Assembly (NCBI GenBank): GCA_041737385.1
Contig: JBGSRU010000005.1
Coordinates: 128-64,127 of the forward strand
Reading direction: 5' to 3'
Length of the DNA stretch: 64,000 bases
Source: Candidatus Saccharimonadales bacterium
GTDB taxonomy: Bacteria > Patescibacteriota > Saccharimonadia > Saccharimonadales > SZUA-47
This document shows, one piece after another, positions 18,366 to 31,594 of the stretch. The position numbers and the translations under genes were made by a program. Positions within the stretch are counted from its first letter, which is position 1, and the number at the start of each line of letters is the position of its first letter. The notes beneath the pieces are model-generated. The model was given only the letters and a program-made list of their open reading frames with translations, ran no database searches and was not told the origin of the DNA.

Positions 18366-18469
18366 TATAACATCGTTTTGTGCATTCTCTATGTGTAAAT
18401 CACCTATTAATTGCTATTTATTTCGTAGTAATTTACTATAAAAGCATAAACAAAATACGTACAAATATT

Positions 18470-18925
18470 ATGACCAAGAAAACGACTAAAAAGAAAAACT
18501 CAAAGACCAAAAAGCTGATTATCCAGTTTGGTGAATACATGTTCACTGGTGGTGTCTGGTTTTGGAGTGGTTACATCCTCATTGTGTTACTTGATGATCA
18601 TATTGGGTTATTCGCAGCTAACCTCGTCGGTAATAGTGTCGGATTGACGCTTAATTTTATATTAGAACGATATTGGGTGTTTCGTACAAAGAAGTCGGCT
18701 AAACTGGGCGTGATCGCCAAGCGTTATGTGATCTATACAGTTTTGAATGCATTCTTGTTGAACTATTTTATATTACTTGGACTTCGAGATTATGCGGGCA
18801 TAAAACCAGAAATCGGGCAGTTTATAGCTAGTGGGTTCTTCACGGTGTGGAATTATTTTTGGTATAAGCTGTGGGTATTTAAAGATAACGACAAAAAACC
18901 AAGGAGGACGCGACATTATGCGTAG
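18470..18925 (+). CDS. GtrA-family membrane protein
   Basis: Four TM segments. F..Y.FTGGV N-terminal and RYWVF motifs. Start chosen at the ATG at 18470. Confidence 0.7.
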   Translation: MTKKTTKKKNSKTKKLIIQFGEYMFTGGVWFWSGYILIVLLDDHIGLFAANLVGNSVGLTLNFILERYWVFRTKKSAKLGVIAKRYVIYTVLNAFLLNYFILLGLRDYAGIKPEIGQFIASGFFTVWNYFWYKLWVFKDNDKKPRRTRHYA

Positions 18926-19018
18926 AGCTACACGAATAAATGATAAAAAATATTTGATAATTGATAAGGAAAAGGTAACAACAGATAACAGCAGTAACTA
19001 TTCAAGGAGAGAAGTGTA

Positions 19019-19432
19019 ATGACTACTCGTCCGACCAAAAAACAACACGAGTTACTGGCTTATCTACGTGAATTTATCGCTGAACATGGCTATTCGCCAA
19101 GTTACCGTGAGATTATGAAGGGCTGCAACTATACGTCTGTCGCAACTGTTGCTTTACATGTTAAGAATCTGATAGCGAGAGGCCATGTAGTAAAGCGAGA
19201 TAAATCTGCACGATCGCTTGAAGTTGTGAAAGGTATTGAAGAAAGTGCAACTGCTAAAAGCAACCACAAACATGAACTCGTCAAAGAGATTGAAGCTCGT
19301 TTCTCTGCATTGGAAAAGACGCTAGAACAAGACGTGTTGGACGAGATTTATGTGCTTGTTGGTGCGCTGAAAATTCTCGGTCACCGAGAAATTGCTCTGG
19401 TCTATATTGGTAAGATTAACGCGTTAACTTAA
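19019..19432 (+). CDS. LexA-type winged-helix DNA-binding protein without S24 peptidase domain
   Basis: LT.KQ.ELL.YL..FI.EHGYSPSYREI is typical of the LexA N-terminal domain. The C-terminal 70 aa are helical with no Ser/Lys peptidase motifs. Confidence 0.6.
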   Translation: MTTRPTKKQHELLAYLREFIAEHGYSPSYREIMKGCNYTSVATVALHVKNLIARGHVVKRDKSARSLEVVKGIEESATAKSNHKHELVKEIEARFSALEKTLEQDVLDEIYVLVGALKILGHREIALVYIGKINALT

Positions 19433-19478
19433 AACATTTAACAGAAAGCAGACTAAAGTTTTAGCTTAAGAAGTAAGA

Positions 19479-19487
19479 TGGTATAAT
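19479..19487 (+). promoter_or_regulatory. extended -10 (TGgTATAAT) upstream of the giant gene
   Basis: gatggtataatcac. An AGAGGA SD sits 5 nt before the ATG at 19512. Confidence 0.4.
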
Positions 19488-19511
19488 CACTCTATAGAAA
19501 TAAGAGGATAG

Positions 19512-22500
19512 ATGCACATAAGACAGGGGTCTCGTCATGGTATACGAGGGTTACTTCAGGTCGTTAGGCCTGTATTTTTGATGCTGAAAAAGTTTTATTT
19601 TTCTCTATTATTTTTCGCGTGTTTTTACTTAGAGCTATATAGTGCGCGCTTATTCGCTCGTTTTGTTGTTTTGAGTGTCGCTCTGCTCCGCTTTCTTCAT
19701 AGTAAAACAGTGAGAAGGTTGGATGAACGACTTACTCGTCGCAGTAACCCATATCGAAAGTGGAGCAGTTGGCGGTTTTCACAGCCACTCCAGAAACTAA
19801 CACTTGGAGTATATAGTTTGCTAATTGGGACGCTGCTGTTCTCGCAGCTACAAACAATACTCGCGGCGCCTGATCTGCTCGATATCTGGAACTTCGCAAC
19901 CCCTGCTAACTACACAATAGATAACGGGTTGCAGACAAACGGTACAAGTCTAGAAATGAAACCGCAGAATTACGTAAGCGACGCAAATACAGCTGCACTA
20001 TTTCACTTTGATGAGTCATCTGGTGTCTCGGCTGTCGATAGCTCGAGTAACGGCAATAACGGTACGATCAACAATAGTTCGTTTGTTGGTGGTCAGTTAT
20101 TCAACGGGTTAGAGCTTAACAACACAAATGATTATGTGTCAGTACCCGATTCCACATCTATTTCACTCAACCAGCAGAACAGTTTAGAAGCTTGGACAAA
20201 ATTAAGCACTAGTTTTGATTCGACAAATCACGACAGACGGCAGTCAATTATAGACAAAGGTGATTATCAGCTCTATTATGACAACGAAACTGGAAAAATT
20301 ACTTATGAGTTAGCTAACGGATCGTCAAATACGTGGAATCAAGAAGCAGGGAATGGGGTACAGAATAGCTGGACAACTAGTAGTAGTAGAACGGTGACTT
20401 CAAGTGCGGCAATAGGGTCCAGTGTGTATGTTGGCCTAGGAAATCAAACAACTGACGCGGCAGTCTGGCGATGGGACGGAGGCGTATGGACTCGAATCGG
20501 TGGCGACGGACTCAATAATTCTTGGCAGTCACAGACATACGAAGATGTTTACTCGATGACGACCGACGGTACGAACCTGTATGTTGGACTTGGCGTCACT
20601 GCTGGAGACGGTGAAGTGTGGATGTGGAACGGTGCAACGTGGACCAAAATCGGCGGTGACGGTATAAATAACGGCTGGCAGGTGAGTACGTTTGAAACGA
20701 TCTGGGCGCTTGATTATTTTGGTGGAACTTTGTACGCGGGCCTTGGCTCTAGCGCAAACGACGGCGAAGTTTGGTCGTGGAATGGCACAACCTGGACCAA
20801 AATCGGCGGCGATAGCCTAAACTCTGGCTGGACAACTAATTATGAAATAGCAGGAACACTTACAAATGATGGCACAAACCTGTATGCAGGCTTGGGGGTC
20901 AGTACGGGCGACGCTGAAATCTGGCGCTGGAACGGTACTGTGTGGACCAAAATCGGCGGCGACGGCCTAAATACCAGCTGGAATACTAGCTATGAAACAG
21001 TACGTACACTTAAGTACTTTTCCGGAACATTGTACGCTGGTCTCGGTGACAGTGCTGGAGACGCCGAAATCTGGACCTGGAACGGTACTGCTTGGTCACA
21101 AATCGGCGGCGACGGCTTAAGTGGAAGTTGGGCCACAAACTACGAAGGTGTTTATGCAATAGGAACTGACGGAACTAACATTTATGCCGGTCTTGGTACG
21201 GGTAATGGTGACGGCGAAGTATGGCGGTTAAGCGCAGGAGTGTGGTCACAAATCGGCGGCGACGGCTTAAGCGCTGGCTGGTCTACTAATGAGGGCGATG
21301 TAGTTCAGACGTTAGTAAATATTGGATCTACCGTGTATGCGGGAACGTACGATACTGGCGGCGGTGGCTATTTGTCTTCTTGGAATGGCACAACATGGAC
21401 AAGGCTAGGTGGCCAATATGTAAATAAAAGCTGGGGATTTTTCGGTCAAGGAACCGTGGAGGTTATGCAGGCGGCGGGTGAATACTTGTACGCTGGTATG
21501 GGCAATACGCTTGGGTCGGCCCAGGTGTGGCGATTTGATGGAGCAAACTGGGAGCTAGTGGGTGGACAAGGTGTAAACAGCAGTTGGAGCGAAAACACTT
21601 ATGAAACTATAACTAGTATGAGTTCCCATAATGGTAATTTGTACGCCGGCCTTGGTAACAGCGCGAATGACGGCGAAGTTTGGATGTGGAACGGCACAAA
21701 TTGGACCAAAATCGGTGGCGACAGCCTAAACTCTGGCTGGACCACAAACTTCGAAGAAGTGAATGCACTGGCTTCGTATAATGGTAATTTGTACGCCGGC
21801 CTTGGTAACAGCGCGAATGACGGCGAAGTTTGGATGTGGAACGGCACAAATTGGACCAAAATCGGTGGCGACAGCCTAAACTCTGGCTGGACCACAAACT
21901 ATGAACGAGTAAGCTCTCTAGGAGTATTTAATGGCCAGCTTGTAGCTGGTCTCGGTGCAAGTGCGGGAGACGCTGAGGTTTGGACCTGGAACGGTACTGT
22001 GTGGACCAAAATCGGTGGCGACAGCCTAAACTCTGGCTGGACCACAAACTATGAACAAGTTGAAGCGATAATTCCATACAATAATAGCTTGCTTGTAAGT
22101 TTAGGAAATACAGCCGGAGACGCTGAAGTCTGGTCCTGGAACGGTACAGTATGGACTAAAATAGGCGGCGATGATTTGAACGGTAGCTGGACAGATGGTA
22201 CATATGAAAGAGCCAGAACTCTAGCTGTGTATAACGGTGATGTTTACGCCGGTCTAGGCAGTTCTAGTGGTGACGGTGAGGTATGGAGATATCGAGATAA
22301 TTCGTGGACAAAGTTGGCGGGAAATAATGTAAATGGTTCCTGGTCAAACACGATAGAAGAAGTCGAGGCGTTTAGCGCTTATAAAGGCAAGCTCTATGCT
22401 GGTACGGGTAATACCGCAAATGCCGACGGGGCTGTTTGGAGCATCGGCAATAATGGGTTTTTGCAGTCAACTACTAGTAGTTTCGACACAAGCTGGAGAC

Positions 22501-25500
22501 ATATCGCTGCAACCTATGACGGTGTAACGATGAAATTGTTTGTGAACGGTGTCCAAGAATCAGCAACTTCTAAGTCCCTAACTTTGCCGGACAGTAATCG
22601 TCCGCTATTAATCGGGAATGGGTACGGAGGACGCGAATATGGTAAACCGTTGGCGAGCTTTGAAGGAATACTAGACGAAGTACGAATTAGTAACATTGCT
22701 CGCTCCAGCTTTATATCTAAGCCATATTCTCAGAGCCCCCAAGTGGTCTCGCCTACCACATCTGTGAGAAAAATCGGGGTTGAGCAGTGGGACTCATTTG
22801 TTGCGAACGAAACAGCAAATGGCGGCTCAATACGGTATCGTTTATCAAACAATGGCGGCGCTAGCTGGCAGTTCTGGAATGGCGCAAACTGGGTAGCGTC
22901 TAGTTCTCTAGCAGAGTCAAATCCTCAAGCTATCATTAGTGCAAATGTGGCAGAATTTCCTGTAACTTTTGATGGTTTCCTTTGGCAGGCAATTCTGCAG
23001 AGCGATGGAAACCAAAATGTAACCTTGAACAATCTTACTTTGCAGTCAACTTCTGATACAACCTCGCCGACAACTAATGCAGCAAATATTGTTGCCACCA
23101 AAACAAACGGGGGCAGTGCGCTGGCATCAAACGGCTGGACTAATAGTGGCTCTCCAAAATTCACTTGGGATCCAGGTATCGATAGCGGATCTGGAATTCT
23201 TGGCTACTGCGCTTATTTGGGGCTAGATAATTCAGCCGATCCCGTAACAACTGCAGGGTTGCTTGGAGTATCATCAGTAGCAACCGGCGGAAACTGTCAG
23301 TTTATTGTTTCTGGTGAACAGTTGGATACAGCGACGGCAGGGTACCTTTCCAGCCCACTTACGACTTCATCTGCGCCTTACTATTTGACGCTAAAAGCGA
23401 TAGATAAAGGCGGAAATATTTCAAGCACATCAGAACAATTTTTCTTCAGGTTCGATAATACGCCGCCAAGTAATCCTAGTTTTGTAAGCGCACCGTCTGG
23501 ATTCGTAAATGATAAAGCCGTAACCCTAACCTGGCCTACAGCTGGTGGTAGTGCCCCACAGGACGCCAACTCGGGACTTGCTGGACTGCAATATAACATC
23601 GCTAATACGGGATGGTATGGAGATATTCATAGTGGTACCGGCGATGCTTCAGATCTTTTGATAAACGACGGCAGTTATACGATGCAAGATCCACCTGATT
23701 TTACCAATTTAGTCGATGGTATTAACAATGTAACTTTCAGAACGTGGGATGTTGCTGGTAACGTGACAATAAACTATACGACTGCGACGATTAAGCTAAA
23801 CACTTCTGGGGCTCCGTCAGAACCGCAGAATCTGCAAGCATCACCGCCTACAAATGTTGTTAACGCTTTTAGTTATAGTTGGAATGCGCCGGCTTCGTTT
23901 ATTGGTGATAGCAATAATATTCAGTACTGCTATACGGTCAACACCATCCCGACTAGTGGTTCATGTACCTTTACTAGTGGTGGTGTTACGTCACTTGGAT
24001 CAGGTCCATATGCTACTCAACCGGGAGTGAACACGTTGTACGTTGTCGCTCGTGATGAGTCAAACAACATTAACTATGCGAGTTTTAGTTCAGTAAACTT
24101 TACTGCCAATACGCCATCACCAGGAATTCCACTGAACGTAGATATTGTCGATGTTTCGATTAAAGTCACGAATAACTGGCGTTTAGCTTTAACGTGGGAA
24201 GAGCCGACGAATACGGGTGCGGGCATAGCAAGTTACAAAATCTATCGCTCAACAGACAATACAAGCTTTTCTCAAATTGGTAGCAGCTCAAGCACCACTT
24301 ATATTGATGCTGGATTGTCCCAGCAACGCTACTATTACTACGTTATTGGTTGTGATAGTACTAATAATTGTGGTGCAGATTCTGCTCGTATTAACGAACT
24401 GCCAACTGGCAAATTCACCTCGCCAGCTAGTCTGACTGCAGATCCTGTCGTTACAAATGTCACCACTAAAAAAGCGCTAATAAGCTGGAGTACTGATAGG
24501 CCAAGTGATTCAAGAATCGCAATCGGTACGACAAGCGGTACGTATAGCTCAGCTGAAGTTGCGAACTCTGAGCAGCTCACCGCTCACAATATCCAACTCG
24601 ATAATCTGAGTGCGGCAACAACGTATTACTACGTTGCAAAATGGACTGATGAGGATGGAAATATTGGTGCTAGCCAAGAGTACACGTTTATTACTGCTCC
24701 GGCTCCAACAATTAAAGAAGTATCGGTGCTTAAAACTACACTTAACAACTCCCTGATTCAATTTACCTCACGTAACGCAGCAAAAGTCGATCTAGTTTAT
24801 GGCAAGTCAGAATCTTTCGGTGGTGTCGTCAGCGTCAATACGTCAATCGAAGAATCTACCTATAGTGTTGATCTCAACTTACTTGATGATGGTGCAAAAT
24901 ACCTATTTAAAATCGTATCGTACGACAGTGAAGGTAATAGTTATGATGGTAATATATTCTCGTTCTCAACACCTCCTCGTCCACGCATAAATAATCTCCG
25001 CTTCCAGCCAATTGACGGTGAGCCAACAAGTACCCAGAGCGTCACTTGGCAGACAAATGTCCCGTCAACTACCAGTATCACCTACGGTAAAATTGATACT
25101 ACTGGTACTGTTTCACAAGAGAATGTTCTGGTTACAAATCACGAAATAGTTATCAGGAATCTACAAGACGATAGCGACTATTTCTTGGTTGCACAAAGTC
25201 GTGACGGTGATGGTAATCTAGCTATCTCAGACAGACAAGTATTTAGAACTGCCTTGGATACGAGACCACCGAAAATTAGTGATATCGTCATAGAAACATC
25301 TATCAGAGGGACAGGTGCAGAGGCCAGAGGCCAAGTAATTGTATCGTGGCGAACTGATGAGCCAGCCACCAGTCAAGTCGCCTATAGCGAAGGAAGCAAC
25401 GCAGTGTCTTTCAACAATAGAACTTCTGAAGGCAGCGGACTCGGTACTGAACATATTGTTATCGTGTCTGACTTACCAACTTCGCGAGTTTATAGCATCC

Positions 25501-25628
25501 AACCTATTGCGAAAGATCGTTCTAGTAATGAGGGCAGTGGTGAAGTGCAGACAGCAATCATAGGAAGAGCATCTGACAGCGTACTCACTATAATATTGAC
25601 AACTTTGCAGAGAGTATTTGGGTTTTAA
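19512..25628 (+). CDS. giant surface protein: N-terminal TM, split LamG domain enclosing about 13 propeller-type repeats, then multiple FN3/Ig-like domains
   Basis: 2038-aa ORF. LamG_3 N-half ALFHFDESSG..DSSSNGNNGT..DYVSVPDS..LEAWTKL. About 13 repeats of the form YAGLG...GDxEVWxWNGxxWTKIGGDxLNxxW. LamG C-half SWRHIAATYDGVTMKLFVNG...GILDEVRISNIARS. FN3-like segments, e.g. ISWSTDRPSDSRIAIG..TTYYYV. Confidence 0.85.
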   Translation: MHIRQGSRHGIRGLLQVVRPVFLMLKKFYFSLLFFACFYLELYSARLFARFVVLSVALLRFLHSKTVRRLDERLTRRSNPYRKWSSWRFSQPLQKLTLGVYSLLIGTLLFSQLQTILAAPDLLDIWNFATPANYTIDNGLQTNGTSLEMKPQNYVSDANTAALFHFDESSGVSAVDSSSNGNNGTINNSSFVGGQLFNGLELNNTNDYVSVPDSTSISLNQQNSLEAWTKLSTSFDSTNHDRRQSIIDKGDYQLYYDNETGKITYELANGSSNTWNQEAGNGVQNSWTTSSSRTVTSSAAIGSSVYVGLGNQTTDAAVWRWDGGVWTRIGGDGLNNSWQSQTYEDVYSMTTDGTNLYVGLGVTAGDGEVWMWNGATWTKIGGDGINNGWQVSTFETIWALDYFGGTLYAGLGSSANDGEVWSWNGTTWTKIGGDSLNSGWTTNYEIAGTLTNDGTNLYAGLGVSTGDAEIWRWNGTVWTKIGGDGLNTSWNTSYETVRTLKYFSGTLYAGLGDSAGDAEIWTWNGTAWSQIGGDGLSGSWATNYEGVYAIGTDGTNIYAGLGTGNGDGEVWRLSAGVWSQIGGDGLSAGWSTNEGDVVQTLVNIGSTVYAGTYDTGGGGYLSSWNGTTWTRLGGQYVNKSWGFFGQGTVEVMQAAGEYLYAGMGNTLGSAQVWRFDGANWELVGGQGVNSSWSENTYETITSMSSHNGNLYAGLGNSANDGEVWMWNGTNWTKIGGDSLNSGWTTNFEEVNALASYNGNLYAGLGNSANDGEVWMWNGTNWTKIGGDSLNSGWTTNYERVSSLGVFNGQLVAGLGASAGDAEVWTWNGTVWTKIGGDSLNSGWTTNYEQVEAIIPYNNSLLVSLGNTAGDAEVWSWNGTVWTKIGGDDLNGSWTDGTYERARTLAVYNGDVYAGLGSSSGDGEVWRYRDNSWTKLAGNNVNGSWSNTIEEVEAFSAYKGKLYAGTGNTANADGAVWSIGNNGFLQSTTSSFDTSWRHIAATYDGVTMKLFVNGVQESATSKSLTLPDSNRPLLIGNGYGGREYGKPLASFEGILDEVRISNIARSSFISKPYSQSPQVVSPTTSVRKIGVEQWDSFVANETANGGSIRYRLSNNGGASWQFWNGANWVASSSLAESNPQAIISANVAEFPVTFDGFLWQAILQSDGNQNVTLNNLTLQSTSDTTSPTTNAANIVATKTNGGSALASNGWTNSGSPKFTWDPGIDSGSGILGYCAYLGLDNSADPVTTAGLLGVSSVATGGNCQFIVSGEQLDTATAGYLSSPLTTSSAPYYLTLKAIDKGGNISSTSEQFFFRFDNTPPSNPSFVSAPSGFVNDKAVTLTWPTAGGSAPQDANSGLAGLQYNIANTGWYGDIHSGTGDASDLLINDGSYTMQDPPDFTNLVDGINNVTFRTWDVAGNVTINYTTATIKLNTSGAPSEPQNLQASPPTNVVNAFSYSWNAPASFIGDSNNIQYCYTVNTIPTSGSCTFTSGGVTSLGSGPYATQPGVNTLYVVARDESNNINYASFSSVNFTANTPSPGIPLNVDIVDVSIKVTNNWRLALTWEEPTNTGAGIASYKIYRSTDNTSFSQIGSSSSTTYIDAGLSQQRYYYYVIGCDSTNNCGADSARINELPTGKFTSPASLTADPVVTNVTTKKALISWSTDRPSDSRIAIGTTSGTYSSAEVANSEQLTAHNIQLDNLSAATTYYYVAKWTDEDGNIGASQEYTFITAPAPTIKEVSVLKTTLNNSLIQFTSRNAAKVDLVYGKSESFGGVVSVNTSIEESTYSVDLNLLDDGAKYLFKIVSYDSEGNSYDGNIFSFSTPPRPRINNLRFQPIDGEPTSTQSVTWQTNVPSTTSITYGKIDTTGTVSQENVLVTNHEIVIRNLQDDSDYFLVAQSRDGDGNLAISDRQVFRTALDTRPPKISDIVIETSIRGTGAEARGQVIVSWRTDEPATSQVAYSEGSNAVSFNNRTSEGSGLGTEHIVIVSDLPTSRVYSIQPIAKDRSSNEGSGEVQTAIIGRASDSVLTIILTTLQRVFGF
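20364..22467 (+). repeat. in-frame array of about 13 repeats of about 47-50 codons each (blade-like)
   Basis: The W.WNG..W..IGGD motif recurs 13 times in the translation. Confidence 0.85.
21628..21900 (+). repeat. perfect 123-bp direct duplication with 150-bp period, inside the repeat array
   Basis: 21628-21750 is identical to 21778-21900 (ataatggtaatttgtacgccggccttggtaacagcgcgaatgacggcgaagtttggatgtggaacggcacaaattggaccaaaatcggtggcgacagcctaaactctggctggaccacaaact). The 3' about 50 bp recur again near 22003-22050. Confidence 0.95.
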
Positions 25629-25631
25629 CAT

Positions 25632-26417
25632 ATGAATAGTGTTTTAAAAATATCAAACGTTGCACAAGAGTTTTTATCAGGAGATGATGAACTACAAGTA
25701 TTGAACAACGTTAAGTTTGATATAAAAGAGCAAACCTTCACTATCATATTTGGTCAGTCTGGCAGTGGAAAATCTACTATGCTCAATATACTTTCTGGTT
25801 TACAAAGACCAACTAGTGGTACAGTAACATTCCAAGACCGAAAGCTGTATGAGCTATCCAAAGACGAGCTCGCTAGGTTTCGTGCTGAGAAAATTGGCAT
25901 CGTTTATCAGACAAATTATTGGGTAAAAAGTCTCAGTGTTTTAGAGAACGTTTCCTTGCCGTTATATTTCCTCGGCTATTCACGCGCAAAAGCAGAGCCA
26001 AAGGCCAGAAAAGCACTCGAGCAAGTGGGTATGTTGTCATATGCGAATCGCCAGCCATTTTTCCTTTCAGGCGGTGAGCAACAGCGTGTTGCTTTTGCTC
26101 GGGCAATTATCAATGATCCCGAGCTACTGATAGCAGATGAACCAACTGGGAATCTTGATACCAAAAACGGCGATAAAATAATAAATCTTTTACGTGAGTA
26201 TATAGCTGAGCGCAAAGGCACTGTCATTATGGTGACGCATAACATGGAGTACTTGCCTCTCGCTGATCATCTACTACACATCCAAGACGGTAAAGTGCAA
26301 GATCTGAAAGCTACCAGCTATCAGGCTATGACGAAAGAATTGATGAACGACATGAAGGGGCGTATAGATGCACTTGCGATGTCGACAAAACACTCGAAAC
26401 AAGGAAAGAATACGTAA
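25632..26417 (+). CDS. ABC transporter ATP-binding protein (MacB/LolD-like)
   Basis: GQSGSGKST Walker A, LSGGEQQRVAFARA signature, LLIADEPTGNLD Walker B. Starts 4 nt after the giant gene's stop. Confidence 0.9.
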   Translation: MNSVLKISNVAQEFLSGDDELQVLNNVKFDIKEQTFTIIFGQSGSGKSTMLNILSGLQRPTSGTVTFQDRKLYELSKDELARFRAEKIGIVYQTNYWVKSLSVLENVSLPLYFLGYSRAKAEPKARKALEQVGMLSYANRQPFFLSGGEQQRVAFARAIINDPELLIADEPTGNLDTKNGDKIINLLREYIAERKGTVIMVTHNMEYLPLADHLLHIQDGKVQDLKATSYQAMTKELMNDMKGRIDALAMSTKHSKQGKNT

Positions 26418-27637
26418 TGGCGCTTTTTAATTCTATGACGAAAAGAAGAACGATAAGCCTAACAATGTTGCTCTATATTGCACGCCAGAATTTGCTGTCT
26501 AAAAAGTTGCGTACGAGCCTTACGCTTAGCGGTGTCATCATTGGTATCGGCGCAATATTTTTTCTATTATCTTTTGGGCTTGGTTTGCAGAAAATTGTCA
26601 CTGATGAAATAGTTGGCAACCAATCAATTAAATCAATAGATGTTAGTAGCCCAAACTCAGCATTGTTGCTACTTAATCAAGATTCACTTAATAAGTTTGT
26701 AGAACTTCCAAATGTCGACGCTGCTGGTGGATCATTTTTGCTTCCAGGTGTGGTCCAAGTTAAAGGGAGTGAAGTAGACGCAGTTACTTACGGAGTTGAT
26801 CAACAATACCAATCAATTAGTAATTTTACAGCTTCAATTGGTCGTCTGTTGCTTGATGAAGATAACCGGCAAGTGGTGGTTAACACTTCCTTACTTGAAA
26901 CTATTGGGCTTAGTAATGACGAGTTTGTACTAGGCACGATTCTCACTCTGCAAATTCCGTTTAAAACCGCACTTGGCCCACAGGAAATAGATGAGGAATT
27001 TGAGATTGTCGGTATCATTAACTCTGGAGCAGGTAGTGAAGTGCTTATACCGGCACACGTTTTGCAAGCAGCTGGAGCAGATACATTTTCTCAAGTGAAA
27101 ATTATCGTAAACAATAATGATAATGTGGGGGGCATACGCTCACAAGTTGAAGCACTTGGGTTTGAAACAGTCTCTCCAATAGATACTATTGAACAGATCA
27201 ACCAAATATTCCGCTACTTTAACATTATACTCGGAGGATTTGGAGCAATTGGCATGATTGTTGCGATACTTGGTATGTTTAACACGCTGACCATTTCATT
27301 ATTAGAACGAACGAAAGAAATTGGTTTGATGATAGCGCTTGGTGCAAAAAGTCGAGATATGAAACAGCTGTTTGTTCTAGAAGCTTTAATTTTGTCTATT
27401 TCTGGAGCAGTAATTGGTATTATTTTGGCATTAATTACTGGGGGAGTGTTTAACACACTTACAAATCAATATGCAAAAGCCAGAGGTGTTACAGATTCGT
27501 TTAACTTATTTTCAACACCTTGGTGGCTTACGACTGGAGTGATTGTTTTTATGGCATCAATAGGGCTGTTAGTGGTGTATTTTCCAGCACGCAGAGCGGA
27601 GCATATTAGCCCTATTGAAGCTTTGCGCCGTGAATAA
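26417..27637 (+). CDS. ABC transporter permease, FtsX/MacB type
   Basis: N-terminal TM, a large extracytoplasmic domain, and a C-terminal FtsX-like three-TM bundle (ERTKEIGLMIALGA). Overlaps the ATPase stop. Confidence 0.85.
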   Translation: MALFNSMTKRRTISLTMLLYIARQNLLSKKLRTSLTLSGVIIGIGAIFFLLSFGLGLQKIVTDEIVGNQSIKSIDVSSPNSALLLLNQDSLNKFVELPNVDAAGGSFLLPGVVQVKGSEVDAVTYGVDQQYQSISNFTASIGRLLLDEDNRQVVVNTSLLETIGLSNDEFVLGTILTLQIPFKTALGPQEIDEEFEIVGIINSGAGSEVLIPAHVLQAAGADTFSQVKIIVNNNDNVGGIRSQVEALGFETVSPIDTIEQINQIFRYFNIILGGFGAIGMIVAILGMFNTLTISLLERTKEIGLMIALGAKSRDMKQLFVLEALILSISGAVIGIILALITGGVFNTLTNQYAKARGVTDSFNLFSTPWWLTTGVIVFMASIGLLVVYFPARRAEHISPIEALRRE

Positions 27638-27679: not shown

Positions 27680-28408
27680 ATGAACCGTATTCCTGCATCA
27701 GTATTGCGTAGACGTCGGACAGTTATTATTGGTTTGTTGAGTCTTCTTTTGTTGCTTATTGGTACTAGCCCGGGCAGTATATCGAAGCAGAAATCTGTTG
27801 ATGATCCGCAGTCCGCTGTTCTGTCCGACTCTATTAATACAGAACAAGCGGTAGATGCTCTTGATGAACTGGAGGTGAAAGGTCGCGCGTCTAAAGCTGG
27901 TTATGCGCGCGACGAGTTTGGTTCGGGCTGGGCATCGATTGATGGTTGTGACACACGAAATATTATTCTTAAAGACATGATGAGTGAAGTTGTTTTATCT
28001 GATGATAGCTGTATCGTTTTGAGGGGCACACTGCAAGATCTATATACCGGAGAAGTTATAGATTTTGTCCGTGGCAGTACAACTAGCGATAAAGTGCAGA
28101 TTGACCATGTTGTGGCGCTCAGTGATTCATGGCAAAAGGGTGCTCAGCAGTTAGACTTCTCTGAACGGGTGGTGCTAGCCAACGATCCGCTTAATCTTCT
28201 GGCAGTCGATGGACCAGCTAATCAGCAGAAAGGCGATAGTGATGCAGCCAGTTGGCTACCACCCAATAAAGCCTATCGTTGCCGTTACGTCGCTCGGCAA
28301 ATTTCGGTAAAGCGAAAGTATAGGTTGTGGATAACTGACGCAGAAAAGTCTGCAATGAAACGAGTATTAAACGGGTGCGGAGAACAGGTGTTGCCGGTTG
28401 AAACGTAA
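27680..28408 (+). CDS. secreted/anchored DUF1524-type HNH nuclease
   Basis: Signal/anchor RRRRTVIIGLLSLLLLLIG. Nuclease motif QIDHVVALSDSW...NLLAVDGPANQQKGDSDAASWLP. Confidence 0.7.
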   Translation: MNRIPASVLRRRRTVIIGLLSLLLLLIGTSPGSISKQKSVDDPQSAVLSDSINTEQAVDALDELEVKGRASKAGYARDEFGSGWASIDGCDTRNIILKDMMSEVVLSDDSCIVLRGTLQDLYTGEVIDFVRGSTTSDKVQIDHVVALSDSWQKGAQQLDFSERVVLANDPLNLLAVDGPANQQKGDSDAASWLPPNKAYRCRYVARQISVKRKYRLWITDAEKSAMKRVLNGCGEQVLPVET

Positions 28409-29834
28409 GATTCATATATCATGGCTGGTCGCTAGCTTAAGCGTAGGGTTACTATTGGGTGTATTTGGTGCGCTCTACACCACAAACTTTTCTGGCAACG
28501 AGTGGGCGGTCTTGTCGATGTGCATTGGAACAATTGGGGTTATGAGGCGTGATCCTAGTGCCGTTGTGCTAGTTTTAGTTGCCGGACTGTTACTCGGGCT
28601 TTGGAGAGGAGGCAACGAAATTAACGCACAAAAGGGCTACGTAGAATTTTACGGCAGCACTGTAGTACTGCAAGGCATAGTCAGAGAGGATCCTAGTTAT
28701 GATGTTGATGGTGACTTGCGAATGCGTCTCAAAGAGGTTGTTGTTGACGGAAAGAACACTCCGGGTGATGTGTGGGTTTCACTGCGAGAGCGGGTGGTTA
28801 TTAAGAGATCAGACAGCATTATCGTTGAAGGGCAGCTATCAAAAGGCTTTGGTACTATTCCAGCAGCTTTGTATCGCGCTCGTGTGCAAAAAATCGAAAG
28901 ACAAGCGTTCTCGGACGTCGGTCGGGAGACACGTGATGAGTTTGCAGAAGGTATTCGTGAAGGCGTACAAGAACCAGAAGCGTCGCTTGGAAGTGGGTTT
29001 TTGCTTGGCCAAAAAACCGCACTACCAGAAAAATTAGACCAAGAATTGAGGCTACTTGGGTTGACGCATATTGTCGTAGCAAGTGGCTATAACCTCAGTA
29101 TTTTGGTGCGATTTGCACGTCGTTTGTTTGCAAAAGTTTCTCGTTTTACTGCGCTGTCTCTATCAGGTCTTCTGGTGTTTGGGTTCGCAAATATTACTGG
29201 GTTTAGCCCTAGCATGAGTCGCGCTGCATTAATTACTTCTCTCAGCTTGCTAGCTTGGTACTTTGGTCGTAAATTTCACCCGCTTGTGCTGTTGCCATTT
29301 TCGGCTGCAATAACGGTATATATTACTCCTTCATACGCGTGGGGAGATATTGGATGGCTGCTTTCTTTTATGTCATTTATTGGAGTCATTATGCTATCTC
29401 CGCTTATTCATAGTTACTTTTGGGGTGATAAGAAAGCAGGTAATATACGTCAGGTTTTCATCGAAACCATGTCAGCACAACTACTCACTCTTCCCATTAT
29501 TGCTTTTGTATTTGGTCAATATTCGCCTCTCGCTTTACTAGCGAACCTTCTGATATTGCCACTGATTCCTATCGCAATGTTACTAACATTTATAGCAGGG
29601 ATCTGTGGATTATTGTTACCCTCAGCTGCATCTATGGTGGGCTGGCCCGCAGAAGTAGTCATGAGATACATGACTTCGGTTGTTGATATTCTTGCTCAGC
29701 AGCCATCTGCAACGAGTGAGGTGAAGTTTAGCATAACTAGTGTTTTGATTTTTTATGTTGTTCTTGTCGGAGCTATGGTTTACCTATGGCGTCGGACTCA
29801 TTATGAGTTTAGAGACTACAACATCATAGAGTAG
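28398..29834 (+). CDS. comEC: ComEC/Rec2 DNA internalisation channel, short form (DUF4131 plus competence domain, no metallo-beta-lactamase domain)
   Basis: LGLTHIVVASGYNLSIL and multiple TM segments. The 478 aa end without an HxHxDH motif. The TTG start overlaps the nuclease gene by 11 nt. Confidence 0.8.
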   Translation: MKRKIHISWLVASLSVGLLLGVFGALYTTNFSGNEWAVLSMCIGTIGVMRRDPSAVVLVLVAGLLLGLWRGGNEINAQKGYVEFYGSTVVLQGIVREDPSYDVDGDLRMRLKEVVVDGKNTPGDVWVSLRERVVIKRSDSIIVEGQLSKGFGTIPAALYRARVQKIERQAFSDVGRETRDEFAEGIREGVQEPEASLGSGFLLGQKTALPEKLDQELRLLGLTHIVVASGYNLSILVRFARRLFAKVSRFTALSLSGLLVFGFANITGFSPSMSRAALITSLSLLAWYFGRKFHPLVLLPFSAAITVYITPSYAWGDIGWLLSFMSFIGVIMLSPLIHSYFWGDKKAGNIRQVFIETMSAQLLTLPIIAFVFGQYSPLALLANLLILPLIPIAMLLTFIAGICGLLLPSAASMVGWPAEVVMRYMTSVVDILAQQPSATSEVKFSITSVLIFYVVLVGAMVYLWRRTHYEFRDYNIIE

Positions 29835-29950: not shown

Positions 29951-31594
29951 GTGAAGATTTTGCTGACTATGCTATTTTTGGCTATCTCAATGCATCCTAT
30001 GGCCTATGCTAATGCAGAAGAAATCACACTATTACAACCTTCAGAAATGATTATCTTTCAGGTTAAAACTGAAGGAAATAGTGCAGCTGAAGAATACATG
30101 CTCCTCTACAATCAGTCACCAACTGCTGTAGACATGATGGGGTGGTGTCTTTCATACACGACGGCAGGTGATAACCCAAGCACTGCATTATCAGAAATAT
30201 GTATCGATGGTGAATTCTTAGTTCTCGCTGGAGAGTTTGTGTCATTTGGTACCAATGAGTTCGTCGCAGCTACTGGATACTCGGTAGATTTTCTATTCGT
30301 TGGAGGGATGAACGCAACGGGTGGTCATATGAGGCTATTTGATATGAGCGAACAGGAAGTTGATAAAGTTGGGTGGGGAACCGCAGTCGCTCCAGAGCTC
30401 TCCACAAGTTTAGTCGCGCCAGCTAAACACAACAAACAACAAACACTAAGCCGTCATCTGAATGCATCCGAACTCGATACAAACGACAATTTTAATGACT
30501 TCACTAGCCGTGATATTTTGTACCAGTGTCCAGTTAGTAAGATGCTGCTCTCGGCTGATTATTTTGTTGATAAATCAGGGCTGTGTATGAAAAGATTTTG
30601 TCCAAATCTGATTGATTCTACTCTCGAAGCCCCAGATGGATACTACAAGCCAGATGGCCAAGAAAACTGTGAGTTGTTACCAGTTGCACTTGAAAACGCA
30701 GTATTGTTTATAACGGAAATATATCCAAATGCTCCGAGCAGTGATGATGGCAAAGAGTTTATAGAGCTTTATAATCCTAACGATAGGACTATTTCACTGA
30801 CAGGCTACACGTTACAACTTGGACCTGATTTTACGAAACAGTTTATTTTCAGTGGTGGCGACATAAAACCGAATGAGTACATTATTTTTTCAGATACAAT
30901 CACGGGAATAGTGTTACCAAACTCAACTGGTCAAAAAATTCGTCTAATTGCACCTGACAGCACGATAGTTTCAGACTCAACGAGTTATTCAAACGCGCAA
31001 GACGATGAATCATGGTCGCTAGTGGAAGACCAATGGATTTGGACAAATCAAATAACTCCAGCCGCTGCAAATAAGCCGTTTCTTGTCCCCGCTGTTGATG
31101 AAGTTGAGGGTGTAACAAGCATACTCGCGCCATGTCCTGCTGGTAAGTTTAGAAATCCAGACACTAACAGATGTAAAACACTAGAAACAGCGGTTTCTTT
31201 GCTTGCCCCATGTGACGAGGATGAATTTAGAAATCCTGAGACTAATCGATGCAACAAAGTTAGTGCTTCGTCAGCATCTCTCACACCGTGTAAAGTCGGA
31301 CAGGTCAGGAATCCTGAAACTAATCGTTGTCGTGCAGTAGAGTCTTCAAGTAGTCTCCAGCCGTGTGAAGAGGGTGAAGAACGTAACGCGGAGACAAATC
31401 GCTGTCGTAAAGTTTCTGTGCTTGGAGCTACGGATGATCTATTAAATGGTGTTCAAGATGTTGAAGCAGAGACTTCAGCTGGCCAACTAAACATACCAAT
31501 GATTACGGCGGTACTTGGTGCTACAATCGGCTACATTGTATATGAATGGCGTGTTGAAATCAGTAGATACTTTAGATTTAGAAAAACTCTTTAG
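29951..31594 (+). CDS. lamin-tail-domain (LTD) protein with two LTDs, four Cys-bracketed repeats and a C-terminal TM anchor
   Basis: Signal peptide. LTD motifs EEYMLLYNQS..VDMMGWCL and ITEIYPNAP..GKEFIELYNPNDRTISLTGYTL. Four copies of PCxxxxxRN(P/A)(D/E)TNRC (nt 31125-31410). Hydrophobic C-terminus plus a basic tail. Confidence 0.8.
   Translation: MKILLTMLFLAISMHPMAYANAEEITLLQPSEMIIFQVKTEGNSAAEEYMLLYNQSPTAVDMMGWCLSYTTAGDNPSTALSEICIDGEFLVLAGEFVSFGTNEFVAATGYSVDFLFVGGMNATGGHMRLFDMSEQEVDKVGWGTAVAPELSTSLVAPAKHNKQQTLSRHLNASELDTNDNFNDFTSRDILYQCPVSKMLLSADYFVDKSGLCMKRFCPNLIDSTLEAPDGYYKPDGQENCELLPVALENAVLFITEIYPNAPSSDDGKEFIELYNPNDRTISLTGYTLQLGPDFTKQFIFSGGDIKPNEYIIFSDTITGIVLPNSTGQKIRLIAPDSTIVSDSTSYSNAQDDESWSLVEDQWIWTNQITPAAANKPFLVPAVDEVEGVTSILAPCPAGKFRNPDTNRCKTLETAVSLLAPCDEDEFRNPETNRCNKVSASSASLTPCKVGQVRNPETNRCRAVESSSSLQPCEEGEERNAETNRCRKVSVLGATDDLLNGVQDVEAETSAGQLNIPMITAVLGATIGYIVYEWRVEISRYFRFRKTL

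Follow-up and report, generated by a model that had tools for sequence, protein, structure and literature searches.

The 64,000-nucleotide stretch analyzed here (the window; positions 128 to 64,127 of contig JBGSRU010000005.1, assembly GCA_041737385.1, from a Candidatus Saccharimonadales bacterium) carries on its forward strand, at 19512-25628, an ATG-initiated gene for a giant protein of 2038 amino acids (aa). The sequence indicates that a single LamG domain, a concanavalin A-like jelly roll, is present in this protein in two pieces, with a beta-propeller array nested within it. The nested head is followed by a long all-beta stalk and a C-terminal helix, and we are highly confident of this architecture for the protein as a whole. 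The gene is closely followed by genes for an ATP-binding cassette (ABC) ATPase and a MacB-type permease. The explanation that best accommodates the observations, that the nested head belongs to an adhesin that is handled by the ABC pair, appears to us reasonably probable. Full-length orthologs of 2020-2048 aa with 50-61% identity are encoded in four metagenome-assembled genomes (MAGs) of Saccharibacteria.

In the native protein, Pfam returns a single Laminin_G_3 match (LamG_3, PF13385) at aa 972-1065, which covers profile positions 55-146 of 151 and scores 50.1 bits against a gathering cut-off of 27.6. The C-terminal half of the domain spans aa 986-1070 (22467-22721; all features of the giant gene and its partners lie on the forward strand) and is modeled by AlphaFold2 with a predicted local distance difference test score (pLDDT) of 83-96, and a fragment comprising aa 960-1080 scores 58.3 bits on its own over positions 58-146. 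The N-terminal half, aa 156-272 (19977-20327), ends in the strand KITYELANG and is modeled with a pLDDT of 87-96. A fragment of aa 120-300 gave no Pfam match, a null result that is uninformative because only about 55 profile positions are covered. When aa 120-272 were joined in silico to aa 986-1080, one unbroken match emerged over positions 2-146 with 78.1 bits, again above the gathering score, and full-length colinear coverage of the profile was reached only with aa 273-985 (713 aa) deleted in this way. The joined halves display the typical LamG motifs DSS.NGN.GT, W.HIA.TYDG and F.G.IDEVRI, and they produced more than 50 colinear BLAST alignments with uninterrupted LamG domains at 30-38% identity and with no large gap at the junction, the best of them (P0086) showing 38% identity over 199 aa (E=6e-31). 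According to these alignments, the insertion point lies in the hairpin between strand KITYELANG and strand GFLQSTTSSFDT, which precedes WRHIAATYDG; the strands that bound the insert are KITYELANG and GFLQSTT. An initial annotation, made by a model from the letters and predicted open reading frames (ORFs) of the window, had proposed a split LamG_3 signature in a nested rather than a tandem arrangement, with halves at nucleotides (nt) 19989-20337 and 22479-22737. That proposal is borne out with slightly shifted boundaries, and neither the splice by hidden Markov model (HMM) nor the test of colinearity revealed two independent complete LamG domains, the outcome named there as incompatible with nesting.

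The 713-aa insert is built from a blade repeat of about 50 residues with the motif LYAGLG..GD.EVW.WNG..W..IGGD..N..W, which recurs between aa ~297 and ~980. Thirteen complete units occupy aa 297-952 (20400-22367), as delineated by repeat analysis, the structural model and Foldseek, and their mean column identity of 61% is far beyond chance repetition. An HMM built from these 13 units located a half-unit at either end of the array. At the entry, the 24 residues of aa 273-296 (20328-20399) correspond to the tail half of the repeat (HMM positions 28-51, 15.6 bits), and at the exit about 27 residues, aa 953-981 (22368-22454), correspond to its head half, with aa 955-978 matching positions 3-25 at 18.0 bits. 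The register of the array is therefore circularly permuted, as a tail half, 13 units and a head half amount to 14 unit equivalents. The initial annotation had counted about 13 W.WNG..W..IGGD repeats and a partial fourteenth; the 13 full units stand, while the supposed partial unit is better described as one unit divided between the two ends of the insert. Complementary half-units at both ends, the sequence-level sign of velcro-type closure, are also present in nine relatives, and the two ends may therefore meet in one velcro blade beside the LamG hairpin. In the simplest reading of the sequence, that blade would be built from both ends of the insert, brought together at the hairpin.

Modeling with AlphaFold2 of aa 120-1080 with 23 homologs gave a mean pLDDT of 85.3 and a predicted TM-score (pTM) of 0.84, and the model contains 14 groups of four strands. 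The best Foldseek matches in the PDB are double 7-bladed propellers (GH74 xyloglucanases, Elp2, Aip1, PorZ and Utp21; E 1e-17 to 1e-12), although the TM-scores are modest at 0.3-0.4. The array is thus predicted to fold as two 7-bladed rings, in agreement with the initial annotation, and units 7 and 8, the most divergent of the series, mark the ring boundary. Units 9-11 are far closer to one another than other units, with a 150-nt period and 85% matches at 21628-22060 in Tandem Repeats Finder, which points to recent duplication or gene conversion within the second propeller. G+C content (0.49, against about 0.41 elsewhere in the window) and GC skew (+0.21) both peak over the repeat region. Searches of PDB sequences with the repeat array and the unit profile found nothing meaningful, Kelch Pfam profiles have no match in the window protein, and a viral structure library yielded only generic propeller matches with low TM-scores. 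Among relatives, Kelch matches are partial or borderline, with Kelch_4 scoring 21.6 bits, equal to its cut-off, in P0007 and Kelch_3, which has a cut-off of 22 bits, reaching 34.6 bits on just one blade of P0046.

To delimit the family, the entry junction (aa 196-345) served as the query against representatives of clusters formed at 50% identity, and 362 cluster representatives were recovered at E<=1e-3. By our own count, at least 41 representatives among the 150 matches listed span the whole junction. Relatives that cover the full head come from Saccharibacteria, WWE3, Moranbacteria and other MAGs of the Candidate Phyla Radiation (CPR), full-length members measure 1740-2373 aa, and public names say only 'LamG domain-containing protein'; every relative examined shows the same truncated LamG_3 match. 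The rule of a half-unit, n units and a half-unit holds in all complete relatives tested except P0028, in which the entry half-unit was not detected. The value of n is 13 in five relatives, 6 in P0021 (a 365-aa insert forming one 7-bladed ring) and 7 in P0017, so that relatives carry 7, 8 or 14 unit equivalents and the smaller ones a single ring of 7 or 8 blades. A different arrangement is found in P0039 (locus L015, 718-4245), where an 8-unit propeller is followed by an uninterrupted LamG domain in tandem, no FN3 stalk is present, and a histidine kinase gene lies downstream in place of an ABC/MacB pair. Junction-spanning matches were also found inside larger or differently built proteins (aa 697-827 of the 5314-aa P0169 and aa 775-901 of the 1089-aa P0207), and the LamG-propeller junction may therefore occur in other architectures too.

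Head and stalk are not always encoded together. At L012 (2332-8829), L013 (5001-12221), L016 (6001-12011) and L014 (5001-11290), the head, comprising LamG and propellers, and the FN3 stalk occupy separate ORFs. The break falls just after the LamG C-terminal half in L012, L013 and L016; in L013 the next domain can still be read in frame from the DNA between the ORFs, and an apparent frameshift is seen in L014. Genuine two-gene forms, recoding or sequencing errors could each account for these splits. At L011 (5235-8283; GCA_041742135.1, JBGSJG010000004.1), the upstream ORF encodes the signal peptide, the LamG N-terminal half and blade 1 before a frameshift leads into P0046, which continues with blades until, partway through one of them (KLYAGLG|MFNT), the sequence switches to the interior of an FtsX domain. 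This implies a decayed cassette, produced by a propeller-to-permease deletion or by an assembly chimera, and in view of the frameshift and the mid-blade jump we rejected P0046 as a functional propeller-permease fusion. Separately, the same ~50-aa blade repeat was observed in P0055-P0072, predicted phage tail proteins with Phage-tail_3 and Rcc01698_C domains, where 5-8 units lie C-terminal to the tail domains and in some cases at the very C-terminus. The distribution suggests a blade module common to CPR surface proteins and phage receptor-binding proteins.

Two readings would remove the nesting altogether. The repeats might be flanked by two independent LamG domains in tandem, and the sole local Pfam match, which begins inside the last repeat at aa 972, could indeed look self-contained. 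However, that match lacks the first third of the profile whereas the joined halves gain 20 bits in spanning positions 2-146; the pieces, of about 117 and 85 aa, are each too short to stand alone beside an intact LamG domain of about 190 aa; and more than 50 intact domains run colinearly across the junction while repeat half-units abut both pieces directly. We consider a tandem pair extremely improbable on these grounds. Equally hard to credit is an assembly or annotation artifact, or a pseudogene, in which repeat DNA has been misplaced in a LamG gene. Repeats do mis-assemble easily, units 9-11 are 85% identical in DNA, and decayed or split copies exist, as in L011 with its frameshift and deletion and in L014 with its frameshift. 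In contrast, the same entry and exit junctions recur across several CPR lineages, in genomes that were assembled independently and at 36-61% identity, the ORF of 2020-2048 aa is intact in four genomes, and the junction is spanned by the 41 cluster representatives counted above.

Outside the head, the first 95 residues form a basic, poorly conserved extension that is nevertheless open in frame in all five loci. Hydropathy and the ortholog alignment identify one conserved hydrophobic segment, aa 96-118 (19797-19865), followed by an AxA-like site (ILA-AP|DLL), and this segment is probably a signal peptide or a signal anchor. The gene product is predicted to be an extracytoplasmic surface protein, either exported or N-terminally anchored. 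The stalk, aa 1075-2017 (22734-25562), is an all-beta region of about 940 aa comprising approximately nine FN3/Ig-like domains by Pfam, AlphaFold2 and Foldseek, close to the 900 aa or so of such domains that had been expected from the sequence. Pfam Pur_ac_phosph_N, an FN3-like family, matches three stretches near the C-terminus (61.4 bits). The AlphaFold2 model of the stalk has a pLDDT of 82.8 and a pTM of 0.41, consistent with beads on a string, its Foldseek matches are the FN3 arrays of titin/MyBP-C, contactin, gp130 and LAR, and its sequence shows a weak FN3 match to PTP-delta. No Pfam match was obtained for aa 1075-1640, where the FN3/Ig assignment is by fold only. The protein closes with the conserved motif GRASDSVLTIILTTLQRVFGF-COOH (25563-25625), a hydrophobic or amphipathic helix of which aa 2024-2036 are helical in the model; the motif is kept in L001-L004, in P0021 and in the stalk genes of the distant relatives L012-L014. 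No LPXTG motif is present at the C-terminus, which reads LQRVFGF, so the protein does not qualify as a sortase-anchored adhesin.

Three nucleotides after the stop codon of the giant gene, as the initial annotation had noted, begins a gene for an ABC ATPase of the MacB/LolD/FtsE (type VII) kind (25632-26417; ABC_tran, 114.1 bits), and its stop codon overlaps by 1 nt (TAATG) the start of a gene for a MacB-type permease (26417-27637; MacB_PCD 59.4 bits, FtsX 70.2 bits). An ABC_tran ATPase with a MacB_PCD/FtsX permease is the combination that defines type VII ABC systems. In NCBIfam the best models for the ATPase are LolD, FtsE and MacB, all below their equivalog cut-offs (LolD 216 against 308; FtsE 186 against 265). 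No terminator-like site was found on the forward strand between the giant gene, the ATPase gene and the permease gene, and the three are likely to be co-transcribed and translationally coupled, judging from their spacing. The order of giant gene (or head and stalk ORFs), ABC ATPase and MacB-type permease is kept in nine of ten loci (the window, L001-L004, L010, L013, L014 and L016), with junctions that overlap or leave a gap of 3 nt or less, while the flanks around this cassette differ in every locus.

The initial annotation had extended the gene order to include a regulator consisting only of a LexA DNA-binding domain (DBD). Such a gene does precede the giant gene (19019-19432, forward strand, 137 aa; Pfam LexA_DNA_bind at aa 6-65, 46.5 bits), and the order of giant gene, ATPase and permease recurs in relatives; the regulator does not share in this conservation, being absent from three of the four Saccharibacteria loci. 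It was not found within 10 kb in L001, L003 and L004, and in L002 it lies downstream of the giant gene on the opposite strand, adjoining GtrA. Genes for a GtrA-family protein and the LexA-DBD-only protein are adjacent on the same strand both in the window (18380-19432) and in L002 (18908-19804), and the small regulator therefore seems tied to GtrA/glycosylation genes rather than to the giant gene. It is context and not a conserved partner, and the ABC/MacB linkage is the more telling context. Nor is the 137-aa protein a LexA repressor, as TIGR00498 is matched only over positions 5-88 of 203 (50 bits against a cut-off of 111) and no S24 peptidase domain is present. The palindrome CTAAAGTTTTAG (19453-19464) was considered as an operator for it and dropped, since its 6 occurrences in the window hardly exceed the expected number of 4.7. 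The 79-nt spacer upstream of the giant gene contains probable expression signals of its own at 19479-19508. A Shine-Dalgarno sequence, AAGAGGA (19502-19508), read directly from the sequence, ends 4 nt before the ATG, and TGGTATAAT (19479-19487) resembles an extended -10 element by eye. A sigma-70 consensus scan, whose overall counts were at chance level, called no promoter in the spacer, including at TGGTATAAT because a -35 match is absent, and the assignment of TGGTATAAT and AAGAGGA as the giant gene's own signals is suggestive only.

How might such a protein work? If the ends of the insert meet in a velcro blade at the LamG hairpin, a large insert would fit into the loop without disrupting its host domain. 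LamG and propellers together would act as a head that binds carbohydrates or host surfaces and is kept at a distance from the cell by the FN3 stalk; through it, an epibiotic CPR bacterium could bind a partner cell or polymer. The MacB/FtsEX-type pair would handle the giant protein outside the cytoplasm by anchoring it, releasing it from the membrane or actuating it, possibly via the conserved C-terminal helix or the N-terminal anchor. The components of this proposal differ in standing. A role as a glycan- or host-binding adhesin or lectin, suggested by two lectin-type folds, the long FN3 stalk and the attached lifestyle of relatives, has in our judgment about even prospects of being correct. 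We think it somewhat better founded that the giant protein is functionally coupled to the ABC pair, as the conserved, coupled gene order suggests; the lack of an ABC pair beside the stalkless tandem-type P0039 is counted as support for coupling. Any specific ABC mechanism is doubtful, and it is unlikely that the pair pumps a small molecule. Still more tentative, and rather improbable at present, is the idea that the giant protein and the MacB-type pair constitute a new kind of type VII ABC machine in which ATP would release, mount or mechanically actuate the head via the C-terminal helix or the N-terminal anchor.

Several points weigh against an ABC-handled adhesin with a nested head. If a signal peptide is cleaved, a distal head would require attachment through the C-terminus, and an uncleaved N-terminal anchor would leave the head membrane-proximal, which is odd for an adhesin. 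That both LamG halves are in contact in one sandwich is deduced from colinearity and from high local model confidence and so stays a prediction, and the blade unit of the window protein is recognized by no Pfam, NCBIfam or PDB sequence model. The best structural match, moreover, is to glycoside hydrolase family GH74, and the head might instead be an enzyme of GH74-like or sialidase-like type, which would hydrolyze glycans in the cleft between the two propellers, with LamG as a carbohydrate-binding module, and so attack host cell-wall polymers. LamG/ConA-like modules often accompany glycoside hydrolases, and the leading PDB matches are xyloglucanases with two 7-bladed propellers (5jwz, 7kn8, 2ebs). 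Epibiotic Saccharibacteria are, in addition, thought to target host glycans (PMC10633639). However, the TM-scores of 0.30-0.38 at 12-17% identity are about equal to those of non-enzymatic WD40 double propellers, no glycoside hydrolase family matches in Pfam or NCBIfam, and no catalytic motif was identified, which leaves an enzymatic head improbable. A further alternative concerns the neighbors, as the ABC/MacB pair could serve a function that has nothing to do with the giant protein, such as the export of peptides or antibiotics, and owe its position solely to operon hitch-hiking. Small molecules and peptides are common substrates of MacB-family pumps (PMC5985334), the WWE3 locus L012 has head and stalk genes without an adjacent pair, which also counts against the proposal itself, and L013 has further MacB and FtsEX pairs nearby. 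Against hitch-hiking, both gene order and close or overlapping junctions persist in nine of ten loci although the flanks differ everywhere, and the L011 deletion joins the giant gene straight to the permease gene, so that the two are adjacent there as well; we rate an unrelated pair as unlikely, though clearly less so than an enzymatic head.

Comparison with characterized systems locates what is familiar and what is new in the nested head and its cassette. Once its halves are joined, the window domain shares the full profile and motifs of bacterial LamG_3 proteins (PF13385); it differs in that 713 aa interrupt one hairpin, and standard annotation catches only the C-terminal two-thirds of LamG. 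With tandem 7-bladed propellers (GH74 5jwz/7kn8, Aip1 1nr0, Elp2 5m2n, PorZ 5m11, Utp21 4nsx) the array shares 14 four-stranded blades, whereas the TM-scores reach only 0.3-0.4, there is no sequence similarity, and none of these propellers is inserted in LamG. The blade motif is kelch-like at best. In the prolyl oligopeptidase family, a 7-bladed propeller lies between the N- and C-terminal segments of an alpha/beta-hydrolase domain. The propeller there is likewise nested in a host domain, with a different host fold, a different function and a single ring, and in both cases it is the neighboring positions of a propeller's two ends that make nesting possible. The lectin domain of the Vibrio cholerae sialidase and the beta-prism of Bap1/RbmC are inserted in propellers. 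The integrin alpha-I domain also sits inserted in a propeller (PMC12422189). In all of these binding proteins, which are secreted or located at the surface, insertion unites a propeller with a lectin or other binding module, as it does in the window protein, but the propeller is their host domain and the guest in the window protein.

Type VII ABC transporters act on extracytoplasmic partners by mechanotransmission, as in FtsEX with EnvC/PcsB/RipC and in LolCDE (PMC5985334, PMC7668044). The window pair resembles FtsEX, LolCDE and MacAB in its ABC_tran and MacB_PCD/FtsX domains and in being coupled to the gene of a large extracytoplasmic protein. In contrast to these systems, it scores below every equivalog cut-off, no MacA/TolC-type genes are found among the adjacent genes, and its putative partner is a 2038-aa adhesin-like protein rather than a hydrolase activator or lipoprotein.

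Farther along the window, 29951-31594 encodes a 547-aa protein with two Lamin Tail Domains and four copies of the Cys-bracketed motif C....[FVE]RN[PA][ED]TNRC ahead of a C-terminal hydrophobic anchor; just upstream of it, 27680-28408 encodes a GmrSD_C nuclease-domain protein and 28398-29834 a ComEC-like membrane protein. At L001 (785-7861, 9050-9481), the cassette adjoins a type IV pilus cluster (pilin-like, PilB/PilC-like) and a CheY-like receiver gene, and at L004 (3802-9649) it is preceded by a receiver-domain gene and by another giant surface-protein gene (1777 aa), all as judged from N-terminal sequences only.

Domain insertions and combinations of propellers with lectins are already known, and members of this family are already in databases. 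Neither a LamG-nested propeller array nor a giant-protein/MacB cassette in CPR bacteria turned up in a search of the accessible literature, whose incomplete coverage means that this is no proof of absence, and the LamG-nested propeller architecture is apparently undescribed. It offers a clean case of how, thanks to adjacent termini, a propeller array of one or two rings (7, 8 or 14 blades) can drop into the hairpin of another domain, and it illustrates how routine HMM annotation labels such proteins 'LamG domain-containing' and misses the remainder. Should the giant protein and its pair prove to be a new ABC machine, it would represent an ATP-controlled attachment device whose nested head serves as a bipartite lectin, with two folds held in fixed geometry through insertion. 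Patescibacteria (CPR) live attached to other cells, and beyond type IV pili the means by which they recognize and hold their hosts are largely obscure. As a conserved, large extracytoplasmic protein in which two lectin-type folds appear to be locked together and which is genetically tied to an ABC mechanotransducer, the giant protein is thus a concrete candidate for such a role in cultivable Saccharibacteria.

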